This document shows, piece after piece, positions 2,343-31,876 of a stretch of 64,000 nucleotides of DNA; the stretch's first letter is position 1; each line of letters begins with the position of its first letter. The stretch is from Phyllobates terribilis (Eukaryota). The notes beneath the pieces are model-generated. The model made no database searches, was not told the origin of the DNA, and was given only the letters and a program-made list of their open reading frames with translations. Both the position numbers and the translations under genes were made by a program. The stretch is from contig NW_027362769.1 in assembly GCF_046119375.1 (NCBI RefSeq), positions 366,048,001 to 366,112,000 of the forward strand, given 5' to 3'.

Positions 2343-3336
2343 TGTGGCACCCCAGGGGTCTGGTTTTCCACAGTAATGTAATGTTATGTCTGAGAGCAGG
2401 TGGGAGGTCCTTTGGTCAGGGATCCTGTGCATGCCACACCTCCTGCCCAGTCTTGGGAGGGGAAGAACTTCCCCTGTATAAACCCTGGGCTGAGGCAGGG
2501 TTAGTCAGTCAAGGAGAGTAGAGACAAGAAACAGTCACAGGAAGAAACAGCAGAAGCTCAGTGGGAGCAATACTACTACAAGTCAGGGGCTGGCAGCTGC
2601 AGAGCTCGCCCTGACTGAGAAGCTTTCTTACCGGACCCGGCGTCCGAGGCTGTGGGGACTAACTCTTACCCAGCAGCAGAAGCCGACCGGCAGGGGATTT
2701 CAGGTCCTCAGGCCCAGAAACCCGAAGGCACGGTCACACGCGTGGGACCAGCACCGCCATCGTGGAGCGGAAGCCATTAGAAGGCCCCGAGTCACCGGCC
2801 ATACGGGTGAGTACCACACGGTACACTCAGGGACGTGGGCTACTCATATCCGCTTCTAGCAAGGTAGCCAGAAGAGTACAGTCAGTTTGGGAGGCCTACA
2901 ACTCCGCCTGGCCAGGGGAGATCCCATCTGCTCAAGGACTGACCAGGCCCCGTTCACTAGCAAGTACTCCGGGAGGGTCTATCGTTGTTACCAGTAAAGA
3001 CCCTGAATTACACCGCACCGTCTCTGAGTGGTTCCTGCTACCCCCATCATCCACATCTGCTGCCCTGAGGCCATACCCCTCCCGTTGGGGGTTATACCAT
3101 CTACGCTGCACCATCCATCCACCGGCCTCAGCGGACTGTCCTGCAGCGGCAGCTCCATAGCTGCATTCAACGGGTGGCGTAGTCGTCCTGCATCTACCGC
3201 TGTTACATCGCCGCTCAGTTTGACTCCCTGGGCACGGACCGGGTCACCGCCACGAGACTACAACCCTCAAGAGATCCGGCTCCGGGTAAGCTCCCGCGTG
3301 TGCAACGCAGCGCGACACAGGCCCAGGGGCGCGTCA
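2343..3336 (+). mobile_element. 3' LTR (~994 bp)
   Basis: TGTGGCACCCC...CCCAGGGGCGCGTCA termini; TATAAA at 2477, AGTAAA at 2993; U5 end homologous to the other LTRs in the window. Confidence 0.9.
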
Positions 3337-3850: not shown

Positions 3851-3940
3851 AGGCGGGGCCTGTGCTCAGTGTCAGCCAATAGATGCTCAGGACGATGCAG
3901 CTCAGCAGCCAATCAGTGCGCAGTAAGCCTGTACATATAA
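3851..3940 (+). promoter_or_regulatory. H1 proximal promoter (GC box, two CCAAT boxes, TATA-like)
   Basis: AGGCGGGGCC 3851, CCAAT 3876 and 3909, TATAA 3936-3940. Confidence 0.6.
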
Positions 3941-4011
3941 CAGGCGCCTCCAGCTCCGGTCTCAGCGTTTTCCTATCAGGAGATATTTGTGTTCTAGTTC
4001 CGCAGCACACG

Positions 4012-4665
4012 ATGGCAGAGACCGCACCAGCCGCCGCTCCCCCTCCCGCAGAACCGGCCGCCAAATCCAAGAAGCAGCCGAAGAAATCCGCCGCCGGGGG
4101 CGCCAAGAAAAGCAAGAAACTCTCCGGTCCCGGCGTCTCCGATCTGATCGTGAAAGCCGTGTCCGCCTCTAAGGAGCGCAGTGGCGTGTCTCTGGCCGCC
4201 CTGAAGAAGGCTCTGTCTGCCGGAGGATACGATGTAGAGAAGAACAACAGCCGCCTGAAGCTGGCCGTCAAGTCTCTGGTCATCAAGGGCGCCCTCCTCC
4301 AGGTGAAGGGCAGCGGCGCCTCCGGGTCCTTCAAGCTGAACAAGAAGCAGCAGGAGACTAAGGACAAAGCGGCCAAGAAGTCAGCAGCTGCGGCCAAGCC
4401 CAAGAAACCCGCTGCAGCCAAGAAAGCCGCCAAGTCTCCGAAGAAGCCCAAGAAGGCTCCGACCGCGGCCAAGAAGAGCCCGAAAAAGGCCAAGAAGCCC
4501 GCAACAGCTGCCAAGAAGGCGGCCAAGAGCCCCAAGAAGCCAAAGGCCGCTCCAAAGCCCAAGAAGGTGACGAAGAGTCCGGCTAAGAAAGCTGCTAAAC
4601 CCAAAGCTGCCAAGAGTCCTGCTAAGAAGGCAACTAAAGCCAAGAAGCCCGCAGCTAAGAAATAA
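4012..4665 (+). CDS. H1: Replication-dependent linker histone H1 (217 aa)
   Basis: MAETAPAA start, globular domain ([13 protein letters not shown]...GVSLAALKK...[14 protein letters not shown]), K/A/P tail with KSPKK motifs, intronless, 3' stem-loop; the ATG at 3883 in the ORF track lies upstream of the TATA box. Confidence 0.97.
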
Positions 4666-4695
4666 TCCAAAGCCGCCCTGTTATTACCCCACAAA

Positions 4696-4711
4696 GGCTC
4701 TTTTCAGAGCC
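4696..4711 (+). terminator. Histone 3' stem-loop (H1)
   Basis: AAA-GGCTCTTTTCAGAGCC-ACC, canonical SLBP site. Confidence 0.97.
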
Positions 4712-5038
4712 ACCACCTTGTCCCCTGCAGAGCTGTATAATCAGTGCCACCACCTTGTCCCCTGCAGAGCTGTATGATCAGTGCCACCACCTTGTCCCCT
4801 GCAGAGCTGTATGATCAGTGCCACCACCTTGTCCCCTACAGCTGTATGATCAGTGCCACCACCTTGTCCCCTACAGCTGTATGATCAGTGCCACCACCTT
4901 GTCCCCGGCAGAGCTGTATGATCAGTGCCATCATCTTGTCCCCGGCAGAGCTGTATGATCAGTGCCACCACCTTGTCCCCGGCAGAGCTGTATGATCAGT
5001 GCCACCACCTTGTCCCCGGCAGAGCTGTATGATCAGTG
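4710..5038 (+). repeat. Nine tandem 35-37-bp units containing the H1 cleavage site and downstream element
   Basis: Unit CCACCACCTTGTCCCC(T/G)GCAGAGCTGTATGATCAGTG starts at 4710, 4747, 4784, 4821, 4856, 4891, 4928, 4965, 5002. Confidence 0.95.
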
Positions 5039-5634
5039 CCCGTATATCCTGCCTCTTCTAGATTATAGTGTGTACAGGGAGCGGCTCCAGTGTTATAATG
5101 AATAAGCTTTTCCCCACATCTCCGCATAGAGCTGCGCTGTGTCCCGATCACACCAGTGCAGGTGACCGATCAGTGTAATCAATGGAGGGAAGGGGCCGAT
5201 GTCCTACAGAAATCTACATCATCCTAATCAATCACCACTTGTAACCTGCGTCTTTATTAGTGAAAGGATTAGTGTGCGGTTATTACTTCGATGAGAGAAT
5301 TGGAGAACCAGTGATTTGACTGATGATAGAGTAGACCCTGTACAGCTCCGTGTACTGGTGACATAGAACAGTGACGACGGCGGCTCTTGCTGTAGAAGCC
5401 GCATGTAGACATGGTGTGACCCTGTGCCAGTATCCGCAGCCAGAAAAGAGTGTGAACAGAGACCCTGCCCCTCTTTATGAGGGCGGGATTACTGGGTGTT
5501 GGGTTGATTTCGTGAATAATGATTGGTCGCAGACATCACACGTGTTTTGGCGGCTCATGTTAATTTATGAACTAGCCAATAGAGTTGTAGGGAGCGTGTT
5601 CACATGACGCGCTAACAGGAGCAGAGGAGTATAA

Positions 5635-6099
<465 letters not shown>

Positions 6100-6130
6100 A
6101 TCCGTCCTACACTTCTGACTATAACACAAA

Positions 6131-6146
6131 GGCTCTTTTCAGAGCC
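6131..6146 (+). terminator. Histone 3' stem-loop (H3)
   Basis: GGCTCTTTTCAGAGCC followed by ACC and a GAGCTG downstream element. Confidence 0.97.
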
Positions 6147-8109
6147 ACCAAATCCTCCATAATAACGAGCTGATCCCTCACATCTGCTTCATATTCTGCT
6201 GAGTGTTCACTTGTGCTCAGTAACATCAGGGGCGCTCAGTTCTCTTCTCAGTCTGCAGTTGGTATCTGGGGGGATTATTCCCTCCAATGCAGTTATAAGG
6301 GTGTGTAGAAATGATTGATTACTACACGAAGTACATTCTACTCATTCAACCACTTAATATTCGTATCCCCACTAGTTTTCGCACCGATCCTGCCGCACAT
6401 CCAATAATATCAGCTTTATATAATGTATTAGGAGTCTGGACTGTGTTTTGAAGGGATAAATGCGCAGATTTCTTGGTGTATATGATGCGATCATTATAGG
6501 ACGTCCATTATCCAGCGCTATCTCCTGTGAACACTCGCTGACTCCTATCAGCCGCACGGGTCTGATCCTGAAAACGCATCAGGATTAAGAGACTAATATC
6601 CTCTGCAGCTCTGTAGTAGGTTTATCTAGATAATATTAACCTACATTTTATAAAATCCCCACCTCCTTCTTTCAAAGTTCTCTGTAAACTGCAGTATCTC
6701 GTTTCTTTATATTCCCGGCATATTGCTGGTGTGATGGAGTCACCATTGTTAGAATCAGTTCTGCACTTTGTGTTTATAGAAAGCGGATACTGTTCCCTGG
6801 ATCCTGGAAAATGATAGAAATTCCTGTATGGAACCAAGAGACCATTGATCGCTCAACACAAGCAAATTTCCTGATATCCGACAGTCCTGAAACTACGTGA
6901 TCCAGAAGGACAGAAAAAGCCTTCAGCCCCTGAGCGGGAACTTCCTATTCGGTAACTACTAACATTAGCTCCTCCCCTTCCTCTGCTGATTGGCTGAACA
7001 CAGGACGTTAGGGAGTTTGAATTTCCCGCTCCTTGGAGTTTCCGCAGCTTCTACATGTAATTGTGTTACTACTTCTGCTGTGAAGAGAAGTGTCCGGTCT
7101 ATAGATAAACTCCACTGAGCACATTCATGTAATCACCTTCCAGATCACAGTGTATTCTCCATTGGATATGGGACCACTGGAATGAGAATCAATCAGCTGC
7201 TCAGTGATTTTGTTATTTATACGGTTCCTTTTTTATTTGACCTGAGCTGTTGTCATTATCTTCTACATGAAAATAACAAATGTTCTCTAAATGCAAATCT
7301 TCATATGAAGAAACAAGTGATATCTGAGTTTTATGATCTCTGACAATTACAATACAAGTGTTATTAGGAGAAAGTAAATATTGTCATTTCTGATGAGCGG
7401 AAAATCCCAGTGGTGGCAAAATATTAAGTTTTATAATTCTGTTCCCAATTGATAACAGTACTGTCCTGCCATTATCGTTTGCAGGAAGAGACCCTCTGTA
7501 AGCCAGACTGAGGGGATTCCCGGCTTATGAGCTGGTGTCAGTATCGGAGCAGTGCTGCTGACCGCGGCTTCCTCCCTGCACTGTCCTTAGAAGAGGCAAT
7601 AATCCTGGCTGCCACAATCCTCCTCAAATCACCGCACCCCAAGAGCAATTCTATCTGAAGTGACAAGCCCATCTTAGAAATGTCAGAGCTCAGTCAGGAT
7701 CCTATAGATTAGTCACCGGGAGCAGCCAGAATGTCACATGTAGATTGTACAGAATGCACGGGATGATGAGGGGAGTAGTAAGGTGCGGAAATGACCCTTC
7801 CTGGACATTAGTGAATAGCATGTTACGAATATGCTGGTATGATGGAAGTGGGGGTTAATCACTGTCAGTGCCGTTACAGGTATATTCAGCAGTGATCTGA
7901 TGTTTCTATATGAAGTGTAGATCACTTGCAGCTGGTGTCGTGTCTGCCCTTTTATTTACAGACTGTTTTTGAAACATTTCTCATCACAGGTAAAACATAT
8001 ATAATTAGAAGCTGCGGAAACTGCACAACGAGCGAGAAATTCAAACTCCCCAACAGTTCTGTGTTCAGCCAATCAGCAGAGGAAGGAGGAGCTAATGTCG
8101 ATTCTGTAA

Positions 8110-8535
<426 letters not shown>

Positions 8536-8567
8536 TTGTGTTCTCTGCTCCATCCTGACAACCCAAA

Positions 8568-8583
8568 GGCTCTTTTCAGAGCC
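8568..8583 (+). terminator. Histone 3' stem-loop (H4)
   Basis: GGCTCTTTTCAGAGCC-ACC. Confidence 0.97.
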
Positions 8584-9427
8584 ACCACATCTTCTAAGTG
8601 AGAGGCTACAATCTCCTGTGGAGTAATAATCCCTGTGCTTGTGTGAATGCCAGTACAAGCTTTATACGCTGTTCGAGTTAAAAATGTTCACTCATTGATA
8701 ACTGAGGATACTTGCACTGAAGGGATGAGTTTGTTGTGGTTGGAGTGATGTATAGTATTTGACGGGCTGATTGCGTTCCTTACAGCAATCTGTAGATATC
8801 CCGAGTTATGGAAGCAGTATCAGCTTTCTTTAATACAAGATACGCAACTGCTCCCATCAGTAGTGATGTTCCGAGTGCTGCTTACAGAATGGAAACATAA
8901 GATCCTGTGATTGAGGACGGGGCTTGTATCAGGCTCAGTGTATATGGAGGCCGCTGAAGGTTCATGACCTCACAAATGATTAGTGGAGAACCATCCTCTT
9001 TTCGATAAGAACCATTACCGTGTTCGGGGAAAGCTGCTCTGCGCTGTATTCTCAGAGGGGTAGAGCTGTGCTCAGACCGCATTGCTCAGATTGCGATCTC
9101 CGCTACAAGCAGAGGGGCGGGTAATAATCCGACGCACAAAGAAAGATTGCGCGGGAGACTCAAAACCACCAATTACAGACATCTCAGCAGGCGCCAACCA
9201 ATACCAGATACAAGTGTTTTCTCCACCGTTTAACTCTCTATTAGCCGGGTCACTAAAATTAGTATCTGCGCTACGAAATATAGCAGGATCAACCTATTTA
9301 ATGCTTTACATTTCTGATCTACAGTAAATCATACAGTAGAACATAGAATAGATCGTGTTGTTCTCTCTATATAGTGTGGACCATCGCCTGCTATCAGCGG
9401 TGCCGGCTCTGATGAGGAGGATGTGGT

Positions 9428-9443
9428 GGCTCTTAGAAGAGCC
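9428..9443 (-). terminator. Histone 3' stem-loop (H2A)
   Basis: Minus strand AAA-GGCTCTTCTAAGAGCC-ACC (loop TCTA fits UYUN). Confidence 0.93.
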
Positions 9444-9477
9444 TTTGGTTGTTCGGACAGATGTGGAGGAGCGGCGC

Positions 9478-9951
<474 letters not shown>

Positions 9952-12521: not shown

Positions 12522-13188
12522 TGACGCGCCCCCTGGGCCAGTGCTGTTTGGGGATTACCCGGAGCCGGATCAGATGGGGGTTGTAGTCTCCGAGTGGGGG
12601 CGACCCGGTCCGTGCCCATGGTGTCAAACTCAGTGTGTGGTACCCTGGGTGCCAACCCTTCACCCTGCTGTTTGTATTCTGGGGTCTTGGGGTTCCTTCT
12701 TCTTCTCTCTGGGTCCTTCTGACTCCTCTCTCTCTCTCTCAGACTTGGCCTTGGAGCTGGGCCCAGCCGGAACCACAACTCCCTGTCAGCCCTTCTGGCT
12801 GAGCTTCTTTGCTCTGCTCCTCTGACTCACTCTACAAAAGACTGACCCTGATCTAAGATGGTGCCCACCTTATATACTCCCTCTATGTGTGAGCTCAGGT
12901 GACCAGCACCCAATGAGCTCCTAGCATTACCCAGACTGCTCCCCCTATCTGCCCCTACACTACTGGGATGTTCCACCCCCCTCCCACTCCAGCCAGGGAC
13001 AGACACTATCGTACCTGCACATATATTGGTGGGAGTACCGTCGATCTGTCCCCCGGAAATGGGATGTATGTAGTGTATGCAGCTATCTGAGCTCAGTTCC
13101 ACACTCCATCCTTACCCGGGAGTGGAATACCACACCTCTGGCTTGAGGTGTAATACCCCTGTAGCAGCCGAGTCCTCAGGGTGCTACA
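12522..13188 (-). mobile_element. 3' LTR (667 bp) with a 575-bp internal deletion
   Basis: Matches 15578-16825 apart from about 5 substitutions, a 6-nt CT-run difference and loss of 15697-16271. Confidence 0.93.
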
Positions 13189-13198
13189 TTCCCCCCTG
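13189..13198 (-). promoter_or_regulatory. Polypurine tract
   Basis: Minus strand CAGGGGGGAA directly before TGTAGCACCC. Confidence 0.88.
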
Positions 13199-13654
13199 GT
13201 AAATCACAGCACGTCCTCGGGCTGTAAGAGAACATAAACATCCACAAACATAAATTTTTTTTCATAAAACATAAACATATAAAACATCATATATTATCAG
13301 CATAAACTTTTCATATAAAGCTTTTCATAAATAACACTCTTGTTCCTCCGGCCACGGTGCAACTTGTGACCGGGTAAAGTGCGATAGTCTCTTGTAGTAA
13401 AAACAACAGTTTCCTATAAACCGGTAGGGGGCGCCTTAGAAAGCGCAACTATATACAAGGGAAGGTATGGCCGCTCTCAGTCCTCGGCCAGGTATCAGGA
13501 AAGGAATGACCGCTCTCAGCCCTCGGTCAGTGGGAATAAGGACACATGGGTTTCAGTTCAATTTGCTGGTCCCAACGGGGACTATATTTTAACTAGCAGC
13601 AGTAACAGTTCTTATACCCTGACGGGTAACTATATACAGTCTCTTTACCGTACT

Positions 13655-15460
13655 TTAATGACGGCGTACTCCTGCTCCTCCTTCAGACCCGTCCGGATCC
13701 TCTTGCTCCTCTTCACACCGTAGCTCCTCCTCCGTCAGCCGGTGTACATGGAGGGCGTAGGGTCCTTTGGCACACTTGTGCCGGGTGAACGTGACCTCGT
13801 CCCCTACATATAGGTCACGACCTCTGTGTCCCTCCGGCAGATGGGACTCCACGTCTCTGCGGGTGACAAAGACGTCGCCGGGGGTGTGATGATCCCTGAT
13901 GAAACCCCAACCGTGCTGCAGTTGGAATTTAATTACAGTCCCGGTGGCACGGGGACAGTGGGCTGCACGGGGGTTCCTCCTGGTCCTGCTCTTCTGCCCT
14001 GCGCTCTGTTCCTGCAGCCGCTGCTCTCGGACCCGCCTCTCTCTTCGCTCGCGGTCAAAGACCTCTAACTGCTGCCGGCAGCACTCCGCACGCTCAGCTG
14101 CGGCTGCCCGAGTCTCTTGGGTGAATCCCATGAGGTCTCCTCCGGTGGGGTCCCACGCAAACTGCGCTTCCTCCAACGAGAGTGGGGTGATCTTAACGGG
14201 CTTCGGAACCGGAATCAGGGGCTCATCTAGGGGTCTTTCTTTCCGGAGTCGGGGATGGTGGAACTCCGGTGGCCACACAAAGGGCTGCCCATCCGGGCAC
14301 GTGTGCTGGGCAAACAAATCTTCACCCAGGTGCGGCACTCTAGATGTTGAGGGCGCGGTGGTGGTGGCGGCGCCCGGGTTCGCCAGGCCTTGCGACCAGG
14401 CCTGGGGTACCCTGAACGTAAAGGGCACCGTGAAGACGGCGGCGCCCGGGGTTACTTGGCCCAGCGACCAGGCCGGTGGCTCAGTGGAGGTAGAGGGCGC
14501 TGTTGGTACTGCGGCGCCCGGGGGTACTAGACCTTGCGACCAGGCCGGTGGTGTTTCCTGCTTTGCCGCGCTCAGGGTTGAGGTGCGTGACGTCACAGGG
14601 GTCGCGGCCGCGGCTTCTGCTTGAGGCCTTGTCTGGAGCGGTGACGATGCAGCGACGGGCACGGCAGGGGGAATTTCGGGCTCTGCGACGGGGAGCTGGG
14701 GCAGGCACGCGGTTTCTCGGCTCGGGGTAGTGACGTCCCCTTTACCTGCCTCCATCTGTTCAGCTCCCTCTTCGGCGCCGTCTCCGGCCTTCACTCCTCC
14801 TGCACCATCCTCAGAGGCGGTCTGTCTCCTCGTCTCGGGTGGCGTGCTTCGCTGGCGGGTTCCAGCCTGCTGGGCCATCTCTCTGCTCCATGCGGCCAGT
14901 ACGTCCCGCTGCACTCGGGCCATCCTCTGAGCCAAGCCCTCCAGTGCGGTCTGTGCACGCTCCCGGTCTCGGGGGAGCTGTGCCAGGATCTCCACCAGGC
15001 CTTCTGGGGTTGTCGCTTGCAACAGGCTCCTGACCACTGGGTCGGTGCTGCCTGCCTCTCCCTCCATCTCCGGGTACGGCTTCTCCGGAGTCCTCTCCAG
15101 ACTTCTTGTCTCCGGGTGCGCTCTCTCCAGACTCCTCCAGGCTGCACCCATCTTCTCTCTCTTGTTCTGTCTCCGCCCACATTGAAGGTGGTCCCGGGGC
15201 AACTTTGTGATTGTCAGTTCCAGGGGCAGTTCTCTCACGCTGATGGACATCTCCAGCATCACAGTCTCCGTTGGTGGGGGCGGTTTCCGCTTTTGGCGCC
15301 ATTCCTTGACCTGGCCCACGATGGGAGGTGACCTCTTGCCACCCTCTGGCACGCCCATAATGGCGTCCGCTCTTCCAAGGCGGGAAATCTTCTGGAAATG
15401 GCGGGAAAAAGCTGCAGATGGCGGGCAACCGGCGGGAAACGATCCGTGATGGCGTCCCAT
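13655..15460 (-). CDS. Intact 601-aa ORF (567 aa from the strong-Kozak ATG at 15358); low-complexity/helical protein with a C-terminal cold-shock (OB-fold) domain at about 13736-13948
   Basis: ATGTVIKFQLQHGWGFIRDHHTPGDVFVT...LYVGDEVTFTRHKCAKGPYALHV aligns by eye to the CSD consensus GTVKWF..KGFGFI....DVFVH...GD.VEF....KGP.A.NV. Confidence 0.85.
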   Translation of the reverse strand: MGRHHGSFPAGCPPSAAFSRHFQKISRLGRADAIMGVPEGGKRSPPIVGQVKEWRQKRKPPPPTETVMLEMSISVRELPLELTITKLPRDHLQCGRRQNKREKMGAAWRSLERAHPETRSLERTPEKPYPEMEGEAGSTDPVVRSLLQATTPEGLVEILAQLPRDRERAQTALEGLAQRMARVQRDVLAAWSREMAQQAGTRQRSTPPETRRQTASEDGAGGVKAGDGAEEGAEQMEAGKGDVTTPSRETACLPQLPVAEPEIPPAVPVAASSPLQTRPQAEAAAATPVTSRTSTLSAAKQETPPAWSQGLVPPGAAVPTAPSTSTEPPAWSLGQVTPGAAVFTVPFTFRVPQAWSQGLANPGAATTTAPSTSRVPHLGEDLFAQHTCPDGQPFVWPPEFHHPRLRKERPLDEPLIPVPKPVKITPLSLEEAQFAWDPTGGDLMGFTQETRAAAAERAECCRQQLEVFDRERRERRVREQRLQEQSAGQKSRTRRNPRAAHCPRATGTVIKFQLQHGWGFIRDHHTPGDVFVTRRDVESHLPEGHRGRDLYVGDEVTFTRHKCAKGPYALHVHRLTEEELRCEEEQEDPDGSEGGAGVRRH

Positions 15461-15554
15461 GGCAGGGACCCTCTGGAACCGGCGGGAAACTTCTTCTTGA
15501 GGTAAATTTGGAACTTTTCTTCAGGCACGCAGTACCCGGTGTTTGCGGGCACGA

Positions 15555-15573
15555 AATCCTGCCGACTACGCCA
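15555..15573 (-). promoter_or_regulatory. Primer binding site, tRNA-Ser
   Basis: Plus strand AATCCTGCCGACTACGCCA equals the 3' end of vertebrate tRNA-Ser with a GTAGTCG acceptor stem (sequence recalled, not looked up); 4-nt spacer to the LTR. Confidence 0.9.
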
Positions 15574-15577
15574 AAGT

Positions 15578-16825
15578 TGACGCGCCCCCTGGGCCAGTGC
15601 TGTTTGGGGATTACCCGGAGCCGGATCAGATGGGGGTTGTAGTCTCCGAGTGGCGGCGACCCGGTCCGTGCCCAGGGTGTCAAACTCAGTGTGTGGCAGT
15701 CTTGATAGATGTTATTGGTGTTCTTAGTGTCGACTATGCCACCCGTTGATTTGCGGTCAAAAGGCCGCCGCTGCAGAAGGGTCCGCTGAGGCTGGTGGTA
15801 TGTGTGCCGCTGTGGTAGTATAACCCCCAACGGGAGGGGTATAGCCTCAGGGGGTCAGATGTAGAGGATGGTGGTTGTGAAGGTGCAGGAGAGCTAAGCA
15901 AGAAGACTCAGAGTCGGGCTGTGCAGTTCAGGGGTTTTTACTTACGGGTGTTCTTATGGTCACTCTGGCCTGAAGCGACCACCCGAGCCGTGCTGCGTCC
16001 ACCAGGTCCTGGACTCGGCCAACCCCCAAGCAATTCTGGAGCGTGGTCCTGAGCTCCTGTCTGACTTTCCCTCTCTTCTGGCCGTTCTCACTAGGGATCC
16101 ACTTATGTCCGGCTCCCTCGGGTCTCTTGGTGGGTACACCTCTTCTGGGTTCCCTGACCCTATACTTGGTATGCCTTCCTAGTGGATTTAGTGAGGGTCG
16201 TGGCAGATCCTGCCCACGACCTCCGGTCTCTGGCTAAGGTGTGCTTTTCTCTCTGCCAGCTTGGGATCCGGTACCCTGGGTGCCAACCCTTCACCCTGCT
16301 GTTTGTATTCTGGGGTCTTGGGGTTCCTTCTTCTTCTCTCTGGGTCCTTCTGACTCCTCTCTCTCTCTCTCTCTCTCAGACTTGGCCTTGGAGCTGGGCC
16401 CAGCCGGAACCACAACTCCCTGTCAGCCCTTCTGGCTGAGCTTCTCTGCTCTGCTCCTCTGACTCACTCTACAAAAGACTGACCCTGATCTAAGATGGTG
16501 CCCACCTTATATACTCCCTCTATGTGTGAGCTCAGATGACCAGCACCCAATGAGCTCCTAGCATTACCCAGACTGCTCCCCCTATCTGCCCCTACACTAC
16601 TGGGATGTTCCACCCCCCTCCCACTCCAGCCAGGGACAGACACTATCGTACCTGCACATATATTGGTGGGAGTACCGTCGATCTGTCCCCCGGAAATGGG
16701 ATGTATGTAGTGTATGCAGCTATCTGAGCTCAGTTCCACACTCCATCCTTACCCGGGAGTGGAATACCACACCTCTGGCTTGAGGTGTAATACCCCTGTA
16801 GCAGCCGAGTCCTCTGGGTGCTACA
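15578..16825 (-). mobile_element. 5' LTR (1248 bp)
   Basis: Minus strand TGTAGCACCC...GGGGGCGCGTCA; TATATAA at 16507-16513; AGTAAA at 15937-15942. Confidence 0.95.
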
Positions 16826-17929: not shown

Positions 17930-19168
17930 TGACGCGCCCCCAGAGCCGTGGGGTACTCGGCAGCCGGGCCTATGGATGCTGGTGGGGGATATCACGGTGG
18001 CTGGCCCGGTCCGTGGCCCAGGGCGGTCACCAAAAAGGGGGGTAATATTTATAGGGGATTTGTGCAGTGTTCGTGACGCCACCTGTGGAATGCGGCTAAA
18101 GGGAGCCGCCGCTGCGGAGCAGTCCTCTGGAGCTGGTGTTACGGCAGCAGGGATGGTATGGCTCTCCACAGGTAGAGCTTAGCTCCAGGGCAGTGTAGGT
18201 AGTGTAACTTGCTCTGGGCGTTGTAGTGCCAGGAGGCAAGAGGGCGCAGATGAAAGAATGGACGGAGGCAGTACGGTGCAGTCATCTGAGTTTTTACTCA
18301 CAGTTCTTATGACAGTTCCACTGGTGCACTGTACGGGTGCTAGCCTCCCACGTCGCTCTGCATTCACCAGGCAGTGGTTCAGCTCTTCGTCAGGCAGATT
18401 TGAAGCACCTGACAGAACCCCACTTTCTTGTGTTCACGCTGGGTCTTTCTCCCTCCTGCCCTGCGCTTCCCCACTCTCAATCCTGCTCGGGTGCTCTGAA
18501 GTCCCTCCTGTCTTGTTGGAGTTCCCGGACCTGCTTGACCCTCACGGGGATTAGAATGAGGCTTCGGCAACTGACTATATAAGCCAGAAGCCTCCGGTTT
18601 TCCCAGCCGAGACTTAGAGTAACACGGCTGGACCAGGGGCCGGTCCCCTTCTTGCGGCCTACGATCCCTCTGTCTTCTGACAGATTTGGGACGTACGGGT
18701 GCCGTCCTGCACTCGCCGTACTCCCTAGGATCCCTTCTGTAGATCGGAGCCTACTCATCTGCTCCCCTCCTGGGCCTCTAGGACTGGGCCCTACTTGTGG
18801 ATCAGAGCTCCTAAAGAACCTCTGCTCCCAGACTGATTTCCCTCACTCACTGAGCTCTACTGCACTGCCACCCTAAGATGGCTTCCCTTTTTATATACCT
18901 CCTGTAATGGTGCTCCTCTAAACTATTTCCTCCACCCACACCCACTACTGATTCCCCCTACCTCTGGGTCCCCCCCCCACTCCAGCCAGGGACAGGGTTC
19001 AGCTTTGCGAATGCATGTTGCCCCTCCAGCCGGCCTGGAGCAGTGTAGTGTTGAATGTGGGTGTTGGGGTTCCGGGCAGCACTCCCTCCTTACCTGAGAG
19101 AAGGAGATACCACACCTCTGGTTGAGGTGCAGTACCTCTGTGGCGACTGAACCCTCAGGGGCGCCACA
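17930..19168 (-). mobile_element. Solo LTR (1239 bp), related but distinct Gypsy subfamily
   Basis: TGACGCGCCCC...GGGGCGCCACA termini; TATA-like element near 18890; AGTAAA at 18293; target duplication GTCG/GTTG. Confidence 0.88.
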
Positions 19169-20264
19169 GTTGTGCCCGCTGTGTGTGTGATGTGTGTGTG
19201 TGTGTGATGGTTGTGCCTGTTGTGTGTATGATGTCCTTGTGATGGTTGTGCCCCCTGTGTGTATGATGTCTGTGTGATGATTGTGCCCGTTGTGTTTATG
19301 ATGTCCGTGTGATGGTTGTGCCCGCTGTGTGTATGATGTATGTGTGTGATGGTTGTGCTCGTTGTGTGTATGATGTCCGTGTGATGGTTGTGCACGCTGT
19401 GTGTATGATGTCCGTGTGATAGTTATGCTCGCTGTGTGTATGATGTCCGTGTGATGGTTGTGCCCGTTGTGTGAATGATGTCCGTGTGATGGTTGTGCCC
19501 GCTGTGTGTGTGATGGTTGTGCCCGTTATGTGTATGATGTCCATGTGATGGTTGTGCATGCTGTGTGTATGATGTCTGTGTGATTGTTGTGCTCGTTGTG
19601 TGTATGATGTCAGTGTGATGGTTGTGACCGCTGTGTGTATTATGTCCGTGTGATGGCTGTGCCCGCTGTGTGTATGATGTGTGTGTGTGTGATGGTTGTG
19701 CCCGTTGTGTGTATGATGTCCGTGTGATGGTTGTGCCCGCTGTGTGTATGATGTATGTGTGTGATGGTTGCGCTCGTTGTGTGTATGATGTCCGTGTGAT
19801 GGTTGTGCACGCTGTGTGTATGATGTCCGTGTGATAGTTATGCTCGCTGTGTGTATGATGTCCCTGTGATGGTTGTCCCCATTGTGTATACGATGTCCGT
19901 GTGATGGTTGTACCCGCTGTGTGTATGATGTATGTGTGTGATGGTTGTGCTCGTTGTGTGTATGATGTCCGTGTGATAATTATGCTCGCTGTGTGTATAA
20001 TGTCTGTGTGATGGTTCTGCCCGTTGGGTGTATGATGTCCATGTGATGGTTGTGACCCCTGTGTGTATGATGTCCGTGTGATGGTTGTGCCCGCTGTGTG
20101 TATGATGACCGTGTGATGGTTGTGCCCGTTGTGTGTATGATGTTTGTGTGATGATTGTGCCCGTTGTGTTTATGATGTCCCTGTGATGGTTGTGCCCGCT
20201 GTGTGTATGATGTATGTGTGTGATGGTTGTGCCCGTTGTGTGTATGATGTCCATGTGATGGTTG

Positions 20265-21532
20265 AATCATAGAATCATGGAATCATAGAATGGTAGAGTT
20301 GGAAGGGACCTCCTGGGTCATCTGGTCCAACCCCCTGCTCAAAGCAGGATTCACTAGATCATCTCAGACAGATGTCTGTCCAGCCTCTGTTTGAAGACGT
20401 CCATTGAAGGGGAACTCACCACCTCTCGTGGCCGCCTGTTCCACTCATTAATCACCCTAACTGTCAAAAAGTTTTTTCTAATATCTAATCTGTGTCTCCT
20501 CCCATTTAGTTTCATCCCATTGCTTCTAGTCTTTCCTTGTGCAAATGAGAATAAAGATGATCCTTCTACAATGTGACAGCCCTTGACATATTTGTAGACA
20601 GCTATTAAGTCTCCTCTCAGTCTTCTTTTTTGCAAGCTAAACATTCCCAAATCCTGCAACCGTTCCTCATAGGACATGGTTTGCAGACCAGTCACCATTC
20701 TGGTCGCTCTTCTCTGAACTTGCTCCAGTTTGTCTATGTCTTTTTTAAAATGTGGTGCCCAAAACTGTACACAGTATTCCAGATGAGGTCTGACCAAAGA
20801 GGAGTAAAGACCGATAATGACTTCACGTGATCTAGACTGTATGCTTCTGTTAATACATCCCAGAATTGTATTTGCCTTTTTTGCTGCTGCATCACACTGT
20901 TGACTCATGTTCAGTCTATGATCTATTAGTATACCTAAGTCTTTTTCACATGTACTGTTGCATAGCTCTATTCCTCCCATTCTGTATATGCTTTTTTCAT
21001 TTTTATTGCTCAGATGTAGTACTTTGCATTTTTCCCTGTTAAAAACCATTCTGTTGGTTGCTGCCCACTGCTCCAGTTTATTTAGGTCTTTTTGAATCCT
21101 CTCTCTCTCTTCTCTAGAATTAGCTATCCCTCCTAGCTTTGTGTCATCAGGAAATTTAATCAGTTTACCCTCAATTCCTTCATCTAAATCATTGATAAAG
21201 ATGTTGAACAATACAGGTCCCAGGACGGAGCCCTGTGGTACCCCACTTGAGACATTCATCCAGCTGGATGTGAAGCCATTTACAACCACCCTTTGAGTCC
21301 GATCACTAAGCCAGTTATGAATCCACCTAACAGTTGCCTGGTCCATTGCATACTTGGTCATTTTTTCAATAAGGATGGTGTGAGATACTTTGTCAAATGC
21401 TTTGCTGAAGTCAAGATATACTATATCTACAGCATTTCCCTGATCCACCCAGTCAGTGATTCTGTCATAGAAGGAAATTAAGTTAGTCTGACATGACTTG
21501 TTAGTTACAAACCCATGCTGACTCTGGTTAAT
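20265..21532 (-). mobile_element. 5'-truncated CR1 LINE
   Basis: ATTCTATG-type 3' tail at 20265-20291, CR1 3' UTR and RT ORF; flanked by GTTG on both sides. Confidence 0.95.
20354..21526 (-). CDS. CR1 ORF2 reverse transcriptase, 5' partial, frame uninterrupted
   Basis: SQHGF...DIVYLDFSKAFDKVSH, SGVPQGSVLGPVLFNIFINDL, KFPDDTKL (FADD changed to FPDD), RPHLEYCVQFWAP. Confidence 0.92.
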   Translation of the reverse strand, partial: QSQHGFVTNKSCQTNLISFYDRITDWVDQGNAVDIVYLDFSKAFDKVSHTILIEKMTKYAMDQATVRWIHNWLSDRTQRVVVNGFTSSWMNVSSGVPQGSVLGPVLFNIFINDLDEGIEGKLIKFPDDTKLGGIANSREERERIQKDLNKLEQWAATNRMVFNREKCKVLHLSNKNEKSIYRMGGIELCNSTCEKDLGILIDHRLNMSQQCDAAAKKANTILGCINRSIQSRSREVIIGLYSSLVRPHLEYCVQFWAPHFKKDIDKLEQVQRRATRMVTGLQTMSYEERLQDLGMFSLQKRRLRGDLIAVYKYVKGCHIVEGSSLFSFAQGKTRSNGMKLNGRRHRLDIRKNFLTVRVINEWNRRPREVVSSPSMDVFKQRLDRHLSEMI

Positions 21533-24500
21533 GATTAATGATTAATTAATCATCTGGTTAATGACTCTGGTTAATGTTGTGACCACTTTGTGTCTGATGT
21601 ATGTGTGTGATGGTTGTGCTCGCTGTGTGTATGATGTCCGTGTGATGGTTGTGCCCATTGTGTGTATGATGTCCGTGTGATGGTTGTGCCCGCTGTGTGT
21701 ATGATGTATGTGTGTGATGGTTGTGCTCGTTGTGTGTATGATGTCCGTGTGATGGTTGTGCCCTTTGTGTGTATGATGTCCGTGTGATGGTTGTGCCCGC
21801 TGTGTGTATGATGTATGTGTGATGGTTGTGCTCGTTGTGTGTATGATGTCCATGTGATAGTTATGCTCGCTGTCTGTATTATGTCTGTGCAATGGTTGTG
21901 CCCGTTGTGTGTATGATGTCCATGTGATGGTTGTGACCGCTGTGTGTATGATGTCTGTGTGATGGTTGTGCCCGCTTTGTGTATGATGTCCGTGTGATGG
22001 TTGTGCCCGTTGTGTGTATGATGTCCGTGTGATGGTTGTGCCCGTTGTGTGTTTGATGTCCATGTGATAGTTGTGCCCGTTGTGTGTATGATGTCTGTAT
22101 GATGGCATGCCCGCTCTGTGTATGATGTGTGTGTGATGGTTGTGCCCGCTGTGTGTATGATGTGTGTGTGATGGTTGTGCCCGCTGTGTGTATGATGTGT
22201 GTGTGATGGTTGTGCCCGCTGTGTGTATGATGTATGTGTGTGATGGTTGTGCTCGTTGTGTGTATGATGTCCTTGTGATGGTTGTGCTCGTTGTGTGTAT
22301 GATGTCCTTGTGATGGTTATGCTCGCTGTGTGTATGATGTCCGTGTGATGGTTTTGCCCGCTGTGAGTATGATGTCCGTGTGATGGTTGTGCCCGCTGTG
22401 TGTATGATGTATGTGTGTGATGGTTGTGCTCGTTGTGTGTATGATGTCCGTGTGATGGTTGTGCAAGCTGTGTGTATCATGTCCGTGTGATAGTTATGCT
22501 CGCTGTGTGTATGATGTCTGTGTGATGGTTGTGCCCGTTGTGTGTATGATGTCCATGTGATGGTTGTGACCACTTTGTGTCTGATGTATGTGTGTGATGG
22601 TTGTGCTCGTTGTGTGTATGATGTCCGTGTGATGGTTGTGCCCGTTGTGTGTATGATGTCCATGTGATGGTTGTGACCACTTTGTGTCTGATGTATGTGT
22701 GTGATGGTTGTGCTCGCTGTGTGTATGATGTCCGTGTGATGGTTGTGCCCATTGTGTGTATGATGTCCGTGTGATGGTTGTGCCCGCTGTGTGTATGATG
22801 TATGTGTGTGATGGTTGTGCTCGCTGTGTGTATGATGTCCGTGTGATGGTTGTGCCCGCTGTGTGTATGATGTATGTGTGTGATGGTTGTGCTCGTTGTG
22901 TGTATGATGTCCGTGTGATGGTTATGCTCGCTGTGTGTATGATGTCCGTGTGATGGTTGTGCCCTTTGTGTGTATGATGTCCGTGTGATGGTTGTGCCCG
23001 CTGTGTGTATGATGTATGTGTGATGGTTGTGCTCGTTGTGTGTATGATGTCCATGTGATAGTTATGCTCGCTGTGTGTATAATGTCTGTGCAATGGTTGT
23101 GCCCGTTGTGTGTATGATGTCCATGTGATGGTTGTGACCGCTGTGTGTATGATGTCTGTGTGATGGTTGTGCCCGCTTTGTGTATGATGTCCGTGTGATG
23201 GTTGTGCCCGTTGTGTGTATTATGTCCGTGTGATGGTTGTGCCCGTTGTGTGTATGATGTCCGTGTGATAGTTGTGCCCGTTGTGTGTATGATGTCTGTA
23301 TGATGGCATGCCCGCTCTGTGTATGATGTGTGTGTGATGGTTGTGCCCGCTGTGTGTATGATGTGTGTGTGATGGTTGTGCCCGCTGTGTGTATGATGTA
23401 TGTGTGTGATGGTTGTGCTCGTTGTGTGTATGATGTCCTTGTGATGGTTGTGCTCGTTGTGTGTATGATGTCCTTGTGATGGTTATGCTCGCTGTGTGTA
23501 TGATGTCCATGTGATGGTTTTGCCCGTTGTGTGTATGATGTCCGTGTGATGGTTGTGCCCGCTGTGTGTATGATGTATGTGTGTGATGGTTGTGCTCGTT
23601 GTGTGTATGATGTCTGTGTGATGGTTGTGCACGCTGTGTGTATGATGTCCGTGTGATAGTTATGCTCACTGTGTGTATGATGTCCCTGTGATGGTTGTGC
23701 CCGTTGTGTTTATGATGTCCGTGTGATGGTTGTGCACGCTATGTGTATGATGTCTGTGTGTGTGTGTGATGGTTGTGCCCATTATGTGTATGATGTCCAT
23801 GTGATGGTTGTGCTCGCTGTGTGTATGTTGTCTGTGTGATTGTTGTGCTCATTGTGTGTATGATGTCTTTGTGATGGTTGTGACCGCTGTGTGTATTATG
23901 TCCGTGTGATGGCTGTGCGCGCTGTGTGTATGATGTGTGTGTGTGTGATGGTTGTGCCCGTTGTGTGTATGATGTCCGTGTGATGGTTGTGCCCGCTGTG
24001 TGTATGATGTATGTGTGTGATGGTTGTGCTCGTTATGTGTATGATGTCCGTGGGATGGTTGTGCACGATGTGTGAATGATGTCCGTGTGATAGTTATGCT
24101 CGCTGTGTGTATGATGTCCATGTGATGGTTGTGCCCGTTGTGTGTATGATGTCTGTGTGATGGTTGTGCCCTCTGTGTGTATGATGTCCATGTGATGGTT
24201 GTGCCCGCTGTGTGTATGATGTATGTGTGTGATGGTTGTGCTCGTTATGTGTATGATGTCCGTGGGATGGTTGTGCACGATGTGTGAATGATGTCCGTGT
24301 GATAGTTATGCTCGCTGTGTGTATGATGTCCATGTGATGGTTGTGCCCGTTGTGTGTATGATGTCTGTGTGATGGTTTTGTCCGCTGTGTGTATGATGTC
24401 TGTGTGATGGTTGTGCATGCTGCGTGTATGATGTCTGTGTGATGGTTGTGCACGCTGTGTGTATGATGTCCATGTGATAGTTGTGCCCGTTGTGTGTATG

Positions 24501-25519
24501 ATGTCTGTATGATGGCATGCCCGCTCTGTGTATGACGTGTGTGTGATGGTTGTGCCCGCTTTGTGTATGATGTGTGTGTGATGGTTGTGCCCGCTGTGTG
24601 TGTGATGGTTGTGCACCCTGTGTGTATGATGTCCGTGTGATAGTTATGCTCGCTGTTTGTATGATGTCTGTGTGATGGTTGTGCCCGCTGTGTGTATGAT
24701 GTATGTGTGTGATGGTTGTGCCCGCTGTGTGTATGATGTCTGTGTGATGGTTGTGCCCGCTGTGTGTATGATGTCTGTGTGATGGTTGTGCCCGCTGTGT
24801 GTATGATGTCTGTGTGATGGTTGTGCACGCTGTGTGTATGATGTCCGTGTGATGGTTGTGCCCTCTGTGTGTATGATGTCCGTGTGATGGTTGTGCACGC
24901 TGTGTGTATGATGTCCGTGTGATGGTTGTGCACGCTGTGTGTATGATGTCTGTGTGATGGTTGTGCATGCTGTGTGTATGATGTCTGTGTGATGGTTGTG
25001 CCCGCTGTGTGTATGATGTCTGTGTGATGGTTGTGCCCGCTGTGTGTATGATGTCTGTGTGATGGTTATGCCCGCTGTGTGTATGATGTCTGTGTGATGG
25101 TTGTGCCCGCTGTGTGTATGATGTCTGTGTGATGGTTGTGCATGCTGTGTGTATGATGTCTGTGTGATGGTTGTGCCCGCTGTGTGTATGATGTCTGTGT
25201 GATGGTTGTGCCCTCTGTGTGTATGATGTCTGTGTGATGGTTGTGCCCGATGTGTGTATGATGTCTGTGTGATGGTTGTGCCCGCTGTGTGTATGATGTC
25301 TGTGTGATGGTTGTGCCCGCTGTGTGTATGATGTCTGTGTGATGGTTGTGCCCGATGTGTGTATGATGTCTGTGTGATGGTTGTGCCCGCTGTGTGTATG
25401 ATGTCTGTGTGATGGTTGTGCCCGCTGTGTGTATGATGTCTGTGTGATGGTTGTGCCCGCTGTGTGTATGATGTCCGTATGATGTCTGTGTGATTTTTAA
25501 CATAGCTCTTTGAAATAGA

Positions 25520-30605: not shown

Positions 30606-31876
30606 TGTAGCACCCCGAGGACTCGGCTGCTACAGGGGTATTGCACCTCTAACCAGAGGTGTGGTATTCCACTCCCGGGTAAGGATGGAGTGTGGAACTG
30701 AGCTCAGTTAGCTGCATGCACTACACTCACCCCATTTCCGGGGGACAGACCAACGGTACTCCCACCAGATAGATGTGCAGGTACGACAGCTTCTGTCCCC
30801 GGCTGGAGTGGGGGGGGGGAGGAACATCCCAGTGGTGTAGGAGCAGAGAGGGGAGGGACTCTGGGCATAGGTAGGAGCCCATTGGGTGCTAGTCACCTGG
30901 GCTCGGGTGTCAGAAGGGAGTATATAAGGGGGGGCACCATCTTGGATCAGGGGTCTGTTAAGAGAGGAGCTCAGCCAGAGAGGGCTGACAGGGAGCTGTG
31001 GCTCAGTCCGGGCCCAGCTCCAGAGTCAGGCCTGGAGTGGAGGCCTGAAACAGAGAGACAGAGGAAGGAGAAGGAACAGAAGCGCCAGGAGAGGCCCAGA
31101 GACGCAGGAGAAGAGGGAACCCTGAGATCCCACGAGCTAACGGTTGAAGGGTTGACAGAACAGGGTACCGGATCCCAAACTGGTGGAGGCCAAATATCCT
31201 CAGCCAGGAACCGGAGGTCGTGGACAAGTTTTGGCGCGACCCCTCGCCATATCCACCAGGAAGGCAAACCACGTATAGGGTCAGGGAAGCCGGGAAAGGT
31301 TTTACCACCAGAAGGCCCGAGGGAGCCGGACAGAGGTGGATCCCTGGTGGGGACGGCCAGTAGGAAGGAGGAGAGGGGAGCTCAGGACCACGCTCTGGAA
31401 CTGCCTGGGAGTTGGCCGAGTCCCGCACCTGGTGGACGCAGCACGGCTCGGGTCGTCATCACCTGCAGGACTGACGTTAATAACAACTGTGAGTAAAGCA
31501 TTGAAAGCTGCAATCAGTCTCTGTGTTCCATCGCACCACCAGCACCATAGGTACCGGGACGCTCTCACTATCACTCCCTTCTCCCGTACCAGCTGCCCTG
31601 AGGCTATACCTCTCCCGTTGGGGGTTATACCACCATAGCTGCACATATATACCACTGGCCTCAGCGGACTGTTTTGCAGCGGCGGCCTTGTGACCGCAAA
31701 TCAACGGGTGGCGTAGTCGAACTCTATAACAACATTACAAATAGATTGCTGTCGGTTTGACCACCCTGGGCACGGACCGGGTCCCCGCCACTCGGAGACT
31801 ACAACCCCCGTTGGATCCGGCTCCGGGTGTCCCCCGCATGCGCGGCGCGGCGCAGCATGTCCCAGGGGGCGCGTCA
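30606..31876 (+). mobile_element. Solo LTR (1271 bp) with termini closely matching the cold-shock element LTRs
   Basis: TGTAGCACCCCGAGG...CAGGGGGCGCGTCA; perfect target duplication CATG (30602-30605, 31877-31880); TATATAA 30921; AGTAAA 31492. Confidence 0.95.

Follow-up and report, generated by a model that had tools for sequence, protein, structure and literature searches.

A second tRNA-Ser complement flush on a covarying helix in U5 of a frog Ty3/gypsy family: a candidate tRNA dock

The long terminal repeats (LTRs) of an abundant Ty3/gypsy family in a frog genome contain in U5, as judged from their sequences, a module that consists of a covarying 7-bp helix, of a complement of the primer tRNA 3′ end lying flush on this helix (site A) and of a complement of the 5′ end of the same tRNA (site B). 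Site A is almost certainly kept by selection rather than neutral and probably binds tRNA, and we give about even chances to the reading that it is a selected, non-priming tRNA dock serving primer capture or loading. The basis of this reading is sequence, conservation, a switch of site A together with the primer binding site (PBS), covariation of the helix and a near absence of priming products; from these we infer binding, stacking, a block of extension and hand-off of the tRNA. A preliminary description of the same DNA had recognized site A, and this part of it stands, but the flush helix and site B had been overlooked.

The element and its setting

The window, by which the whole 64-kb stretch of DNA analysed is meant, is set in a histone gene cluster within the 10.6-Gb host genome. 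It contains five related LTRs, namely one full pair, an LTR at 2343–3336 and two solo LTRs:

12522–16825, minus strand: non-autonomous Ty3/gypsy element with the target-site duplication (TSD) TATA
15578–16825, minus strand: 5′ LTR (TGTAGC...GCGTCA) of this element
15937–15942, minus strand: putative poly(A) signal AGTAAA, which puts sites A and B in U5
15556–15573, minus strand: true 18-nt PBS for tRNA-Ser(AGA/TGA), 4 nt past the LTR end
13655–15520, minus strand: single stop-to-stop frame of 621 aa with a C-terminal cold-shock domain, without pol
13189–13200, minus strand: polypurine tract
12522–13188, minus strand: 3′ LTR with an internal deletion; helix and site A are gone, hairpin H2 and a variant site B are kept
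2343–3336, plus strand: LTR with a polypurine tract before it, hence a 3′ LTR; helix 3081–3087/3168–3174, site A 3175–3185, site B 3249–3261
17930–19168, minus strand: solo LTR of the tRNA-Ser(CGA) lineage; helix 18172–18166/18088–18082, site A 18081–18068, site B 18001–17991
30606–31876, plus strand: solo LTR with the TSD CATG; helix 31614–31620/31702–31708, site A 31709–31719, site B 31787–31802

The family is Ty3/gypsy and the window copy is non-autonomous. TG...CA LTRs, a short TSD, a tRNA PBS and a polypurine tract, the structural features of Ty3/gypsy elements (Metaviridae), are all present, and members outside the window carry gag (a weak PNMA match and a zinc knuckle) and pol, the order of the latter being RT-RNaseH-integrase (L169, 1402 aa; L182, 1388 aa; L149). 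This order excludes a Gmr1-like assignment, since in Gmr1-like elements the integrase precedes RT according to the account in PMC3601003. The match of the gag to PF14893 scores 22.4 bits, which is under the cut-off of 25; the Barthez lineage is presented in PMC3670739 as the progenitor of PNMA genes. Frames ending in a cold-shock domain, such as that at 13655–15520, replace gag-pol in abundant non-autonomous derivatives with a period of 3.6–3.8 kb (L175, L177), and in many copies of these the frame stays open.

The location of sites A and B within U5 is likewise read from sequence. Of 100 LTRs, 92 contain the motif A[AGT]TAAA 300–420 nt upstream of their end. The contigs of four RNA runs, when aligned to the element, showed neither start nor end sites, so the R/U5 border is drawn from the hexamer.

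The surroundings deserve a short description. The histone genes H1, H3 and H2A are located at 3883–9951. The insertions 12522–16825 and 17930–19168 are found again with identical flanks at several places on contig C9, and therefore the block must have been amplified after the insertions. A minisatellite-like array (19169–25490) is broken by an RT-encoding fragment (20354–21541), a solo LTR is inserted in a repeat similar to this array, and 36500–64000 is filled by an array with over 800 units of a 22-bp satellite. Elsewhere, tandem elements with three LTRs, of which the middle one is common, were encountered (L022–L024; L002, L003, L010).

Site A and the primer tRNAs of the host

The U5 module of the 5′ LTR, in the order in which it is read on the minus strand, is composed as follows:

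15828–15834, minus strand: 5′ strand of the capping helix (CCCGTTG), with compensatory pairs at positions 3 and 6
15753–15774, minus strand: hairpin H1 within the domain closed by the helix, seen in the sequences of 60 copies and in folds
15742–15748, minus strand: 3′ strand of the capping helix (CAACGGG), directly abutting site A
15731–15741, minus strand: site A, complement of the 3′ 11 nt of tRNA-Ser(AGA/TGA), with a private G>A at 15737
15658–15682, minus strand: H2, a conserved hairpin-like segment between sites A and B (conservation 0.85–0.94)
15639–15654, minus strand: site B (GCCACTCGGAGACTAC), complement of tRNA-Ser nt 1–6 and 11–18, predicted −22 kcal/mol

The four positions at which a second tRNA-Ser complement had been described all hold: TGGCGTAGTCG at 3175–3185 and 31709–31719 (both plus strand), TGGCATAGTCG at 15741–15731 (minus strand) and TGGCGTCACGAACA at 18081–18068 (minus strand). 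The distance to the LTR end, previously put at about 140–157 nt, measures 138–157 nt when counted from the end of the motif, which starts 152–168 nt upstream of the LTR end. Apart from these, the 64 kb contains a single match to the TGGCGTAGTCG type when up to one mismatch is allowed, namely that of the true PBS at 15573. The deviating base at 15737 is peculiar to the window copy; of its 30 closest genomic copies, 29 have a G and with it a perfect 11-mer.

Both tRNA 3′ ends are present in the host. A pattern for the GTAGTCG acceptor stem gave 28 matches, and the two that were examined are tRNA-Ser genes with the anticodons AGA and TGA. The tRNA-Ser of the CGA type with a GTCACGG stem, which the preliminary description had named, also exists in the host and has the 3′ end TGTTCGTGACG; among the matches listed there is one such gene (G000 C2:193078382-193078463), and about 2,500 elements have a fitting PBS. 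An antisense tRNA gene or Pol III unit was rejected as a candidate because ARAGORN detects no tRNA gene in the 64 kb and the middle segment has no relation to tRNA.

The complementarity of site A breaks off sharply after nt 11 in the AGA lineage and after nt 13–14 in the CGA lineage. The predicted duplex with the tRNA has about −21 kcal/mol in both lineages, and that of the PBS about −35 kcal/mol (−36 for AGA and −34 for CGA). The host genome contains 243,250 copies of the AGA-type site A and at least 243,000 LTR copies of the family.

The capping helix

The 7 nt directly before site A pair with a strand approximately 90 nt upstream, the variants being CCCGTTG/CAACGGG, CCCGTGG/CCACGGG and CCTGTGG/CCACAGG. 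At least six Watson-Crick pairs ending flush on the first T of site A are found in 81 of 93 copies, as against 11% at control offsets and none of 100 at the true PBS. Pair 3 swaps between C-G and T-A (49/37) and pair 6 between G-C and T-A (56/30). The 'CA plus 4–5 nt' before the motif, which had been considered as a fossil LTR end, is therefore the 3′ strand of a covarying helix. The thermodynamic support for the helix is moderate, its predicted pairing probability exceeding 0.5 in 50 of 93 copies when site A is forced open.

Conservation and co-switch with the PBS

For these comparisons 50 AGA and 50 CGA 5′ LTRs, all from contig C1, were selected solely on the junction of LTR end and PBS, of which there are 53,887 of the AGA type and 2,486 of the CGA type genome-wide; for each type the first 30 listed were taken together with 20 picked by hand from the next 70. 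In the AGA-PBS set 49 site A sequences are of the AGA type, none is of the CGA type and one is absent; in the CGA-PBS set 45 are of the CGA type, none is of the AGA type and five are absent. Site A thus agrees in type with the PBS of its own lineage in 94 of 94 callable copies, as expected from the earlier proposal that the two covary. The identity of site A, computed on 29 AGA and 41 CGA de-duplicated copies, is 0.93 (AGA) and 0.89 (CGA), that of the aligned U5 stretch 0.65 and 0.64, and that of the 24 nt after site A (the spacer) 0.30 and 0.36. Only 1.0% (AGA) and 3.7% (CGA) of the other 11-nt windows in U5 are equally conserved, which bears out the claim that the motif is more conserved than the flanking U5.

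Selection for tRNA pairing, proposed in the preliminary description from the change to another real tRNA, is still the simplest reading because site A is conserved above its flanks and follows the isoacceptor of the PBS. The co-switch by itself, however, does not prove it. In an LTR tree of 93 of the 100 LTRs (seven lack the anchor), calculated after sites A and B had been taken out, the two types are split on one branch (support 100/99), which indicates one evolutionary switch and not many, and a copy of the tRNA can on rare occasions overwrite site A, as in L303 (see below).

A search for further isoacceptor lineages yielded only 16 scattered copies with a variant PBS, of which eight resemble point-mutated AGA PBSs and seven resemble mosaics, with no matching tRNA gene under the pattern used; the remaining one (L142) has a PBS exactly complementary to a further tRNA-Ser(TGA) of the host. 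The parental type of site A is retained in all 15 readable copies, L137 being without site A. Since L142 keeps both the parental site A and the parental site B, site A is inherited and not re-copied from the primer in every cycle. In the mosaics (L131, L134, L137–L141) the first 10–11 nt of the PBS are like another tRNA-Ser and the remainder is parental; possibly they are heteroduplex mosaics following mis-priming.

Site B

Past H2 the LTRs have GCCAC-(0–7 nt)-ACTAC in the AGA lineage and GCCAC-Y-GTGAY in the CGA lineage, which is the complement of nt 1–11 of the primer tRNA, arranged in tRNA order. For example, in the solo LTR 17930–19168 site B is GCCACCGTGAT and would form 11 bp with tRNA nt 1–11. 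The predicted energies with the cognate and the non-cognate tRNA 5′ end are −21.9 versus −10.8 kcal/mol in the CGA lineage and −17.1 versus −14.9 kcal/mol in the AGA lineage. The cognate 5′ end is favoured in 47 of the 50 CGA-PBS copies (three could not be called) and in 40 of the 50 AGA-PBS copies, the other ten favouring the non-cognate tRNA. Complementarity of U5 to the 5′ nucleotides of the primer tRNA, of the kind proposed for FIV, is hence found by sequence and energy, and is weaker in the AGA lineage. Site B outscores every upstream window in only 17 of 50 AGA and 32 of 48 CGA copies, and it is weaker and less secure than site A.

Distant relatives

An RT scan of 4 of the 64 parts of a metagenome collection, from which the best 80 of 575 hits were kept, led to 15 loci with a PBS recognizable by eye. 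Six of them have a copy of 9–12 nt of the PBS at a distance of 63–203 nt upstream of it. The primer is of the Ser type in L217 and L223, Leu-CAG in L239, Lys-CTT in both L249 and L257 (in L257 the match is 10 of 11, one a wobble) and Lys-like in L266. A helix of 5–8 bp lies flush on site A in five of the six, L217 being cut by the contig end. A PBS copy was not found in the other nine, four of which have less than 150 nt of upstream sequence. Site B of the Leu-primed L239 matches tRNA-Leu nt 1–7 exactly, including the wobble position at which it would mismatch site A, and none of 300 shuffles binds equally well, the reference being the tRNA-Leu of the host frog (G000) in place of the unseen tRNA-Leu of L239. 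In the other five relatives site B is not significant (p 0.06–0.38). On a FastTree RT tree the dual-site trait requires three changes, of which at least two are forced by well-supported branches; it has therefore either several origins or is an old trait with losses.

The exact dual-Ser pattern was found in none of the metagenome contigs, and the Leu dual-site pattern with a gap of 40–70 nt gave no match in the host genome, being too narrow for this to mean absence. A scan of viral contigs yielded one RT relative, without a PBS candidate. A dual match in L265 lies within coding sequence and was set aside as chance. In L239 (149–164), L257 and L266 an AATAAA, ATTAAA or TATAAA hexamer is located in the loop of the capping helix, 13–16 nt before site A, and the poly(A) or start site of this clade may overlap with site A.

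A possible function of site A and its alternatives

If site A is a dock, the following sequence of events can be envisaged. The free NCCA end of uncharged tRNA-Ser would pair with UGG-N and stack on the capping helix, whereupon the 3′ strand of the acceptor stem would exchange onto site A (11–14 bp). The exchange would end with the acceptor stem or shortly after it, most of the T-arm could stay folded, and site B would catch the displaced 5′ strand, while the capping helix would hinder extension from site A. The opened tRNA would then be packaged with the RNA, or its 3′ end would move to the stronger 18-nt PBS (approximately −35 versus −21 kcal/mol), or both, the 5′ end remaining on site B during the move.

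The most serious alternative, albeit an unlikely one, is a folding switch in cis, in which no tRNA binds to site A and site A is a mimic of the PBS that competes for anti-PBS stretches of the leader and thereby gates primer access. Such a switch would equally make site A track the PBS. The halves of site B complement halves of both site A and the PBS, and the TCGG of site B could, by inspection, pair with a downstream CTCCGGGT; in the AGA lineage the predicted pairing of site A with a spacer motif averages 0.25 and exceeds 0.5 in 24% of the copies. However, partition-function folds of 92 leaders predict almost no pairing of site B with site A or with the PBS (≤0.04), site B being mostly unpaired in the AGA lineage, and its halves stand in the order of the tRNA 5′ end and cannot form a single helix with site A. 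In the CGA lineage the spacer partner is missing (pairing 0.07). Moreover, site B of L239 follows the tRNA at the wobble position, and a helix that ends exactly where the tRNA 3′ end would lie is left unexplained by such a switch.

It is improbable that site A acts at the level of DNA, its minus-strand copy (tRNA-like, ending in CCA) together with pausing at the helix providing a handle for strand transfer or re-priming between co-packaged genomes. At 65 places an LTR end and PBS are joined to the sequence normally found behind site A, which would suit such a role. Of 20 joins fetched 18 could be classified: 14 have 17–18 tRNA-matching nt and four have A-type sequence, and in seven of the 18 the second tail is only 74–86% identical to the first, which suggests that it comes from another subfamily. 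The simplest reading of the joins would be that plus-strand strong-stop DNA was transferred to site A as copied in the minus strand, probably in many cases that of a co-packaged genome from a different subfamily. But 65 places against 243,250 copies of site A mean that such errors are rare, what results is a duplicated LTR tail, and site B is not accounted for. Such mis-aimed transfers are a cost of keeping site A, which makes the case for selection stronger, and they can overwrite site A after a primer switch, which makes the co-switch weaker as a stand-alone proof. The LTRs concerned (L305–L324 and 45 further places) have a duplicated U5 tail of 160–175 nt with an internal PBS; at times both LTRs of one element are of this form, and often they are chimeric between subfamilies.

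That site A is a second working PBS, as the dual priming considered in the preliminary description would have it, is less probable still. PBSs of 11 nt do prime in other elements, as documented for Gypsy in PMC1635307, and the LTR pair of L303, of which the 5′ LTR has an 18-mer at site A and the 3′ LTR is normal there, looks as priming at site A would make it; L303 can equally be the result of a tail duplication followed by a deletion. A pattern search for insertions ending at the internal CA found none among the 4,835 copies of that subfamily, the pattern being estimated from base composition to catch about 35% of such events, and a copy of 18 tRNA nucleotides after the helix strand occurs at only 2 of 243,250 AGA-type sites and, as a bare count, once at a CGA-type site A. 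Two of these three cases (L304, L327) run directly into the internal region and may be deletions. Site A therefore lacks the marks of a working PBS, i.e., an integrated LTR end and 18-nt recopying from the tRNA, and productive dual priming is not supported by the genome; these counts register integrated products, and abortive priming at site A would leave none.

There is little to recommend site A as a decoy or target for 3′ tRNA fragments. As far as reported in bioRxiv 10.64898/2026.01.22.698655, tRF3a/b act on PBSs and repression can be independent of the seed; but a decoy carried by the RNA that it protects would be targeted too, its predicted pairing is weaker than that of the PBS (−21 versus −35 kcal/mol), and such fragments have no 5′ strand for site B. 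Least probable of all is a neutral fossil of a former LTR end and PBS, for although tail duplications that create an internal end plus PBS do happen, and site A may first have arisen in this way, the adjacent spacer decays while site A stays conserved, the upstream 'CA' belongs to the covarying helix, site A changed along with the primer and is also found in relatives using other tRNAs, all of which largely refutes this explanation for the present maintenance of the site.

Relation to known systems

In HIV-1 the U3-R region has a primer activation signal and a tRNA-like sequence, complementary to parts of the primer tRNA, which tune initiation and strand transfer. Complements of the primer tRNA in the LTR are thus common to both, but those of HIV-1 pair with other arms of the tRNA and not with the CCA end.

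Drosophila Gypsy has two PBSs for tRNA-Lys2 (Gabus et al., 2006, PMC1635307). Its second site, of 11 nt and in this respect like site A, binds the primer tRNA and is dispensable for cDNA synthesis; however, by the same account this site is near the 3′ end of the RNA and has the anticodon and T stems as partners, which allows one tRNA to bridge both. The second site of the frog family is in U5 and complements the same tRNA 3′ end as the PBS, and as both need this end, one tRNA cannot hold site A and PBS together. Ty3 and Ty1 have a bipartite PBS, in which additional segments are complementary to the T and D arms of the tRNA (PMC5371799). Pairing between element and tRNA beyond the PBS is a shared feature, but in Ty3 the extra segment is in the 3′ U3, and the account in PMC5371799 describes no duplicate of the acceptor-end site for either element. 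Site A is not part of a 5′-3′ bipartite PBS, since the acceptor 3′ end would be its partner and the putative poly(A) signal precedes it. The 5′ end of tRNA-Lys3 is believed to interact with U5-IR of FIV, neither a second 3′-end site nor a capping helix being mentioned in that account (PMC12509431, citing Miller et al., 2001). A second site for the same tRNA end is therefore new with respect to the known multipartite PBSs compared here, and in the open-access literature no description was found of a U5 that carries a second acceptor-end site capped by a helix.

The closest likeness is to the T-box, in which UGGN of the mRNA pairs with NCCA of the tRNA, a neighbouring helix of the mRNA being the surface on which the tRNA 3′ end stacks (PMC7583486). 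Site A has a UGGN beside a helix that, to judge from base sequence and covariation, could stack on A76. However, the T-box as described in PMC7583486 pairs only 4 nt with the acceptor stem staying closed, and has Stem I and a steric sieve, whereas pairing of 11–14 nt in the frog family would open the acceptor stem; the likeness is an analogy only. A search of Rfam for a T-box gave no match, the sole hit being Twister-P5 at chance level (E 0.59).

Significance

The choice of primer tRNA isodecoder and its loading are known for few LTR elements. The compact module described here is common to a family of at least 243,000 LTR copies and to distant Ser-, Leu- and Lys-primed relatives, and the question of its function is testable on an RNA of 300 nt. 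The mis-aimed strand transfers recorded in the genome are a route by which LTR tails are duplicated and subfamilies recombine. More speculative, and in our opinion rather doubtful, is the full reading that a widespread Ty3/gypsy group possesses a T-box-like leader device which would select uncharged tRNA by stacking of its CCA end, unzip it without priming and hand it off to the PBS. If this were true, the three sites would bind each lineage to one tRNA.
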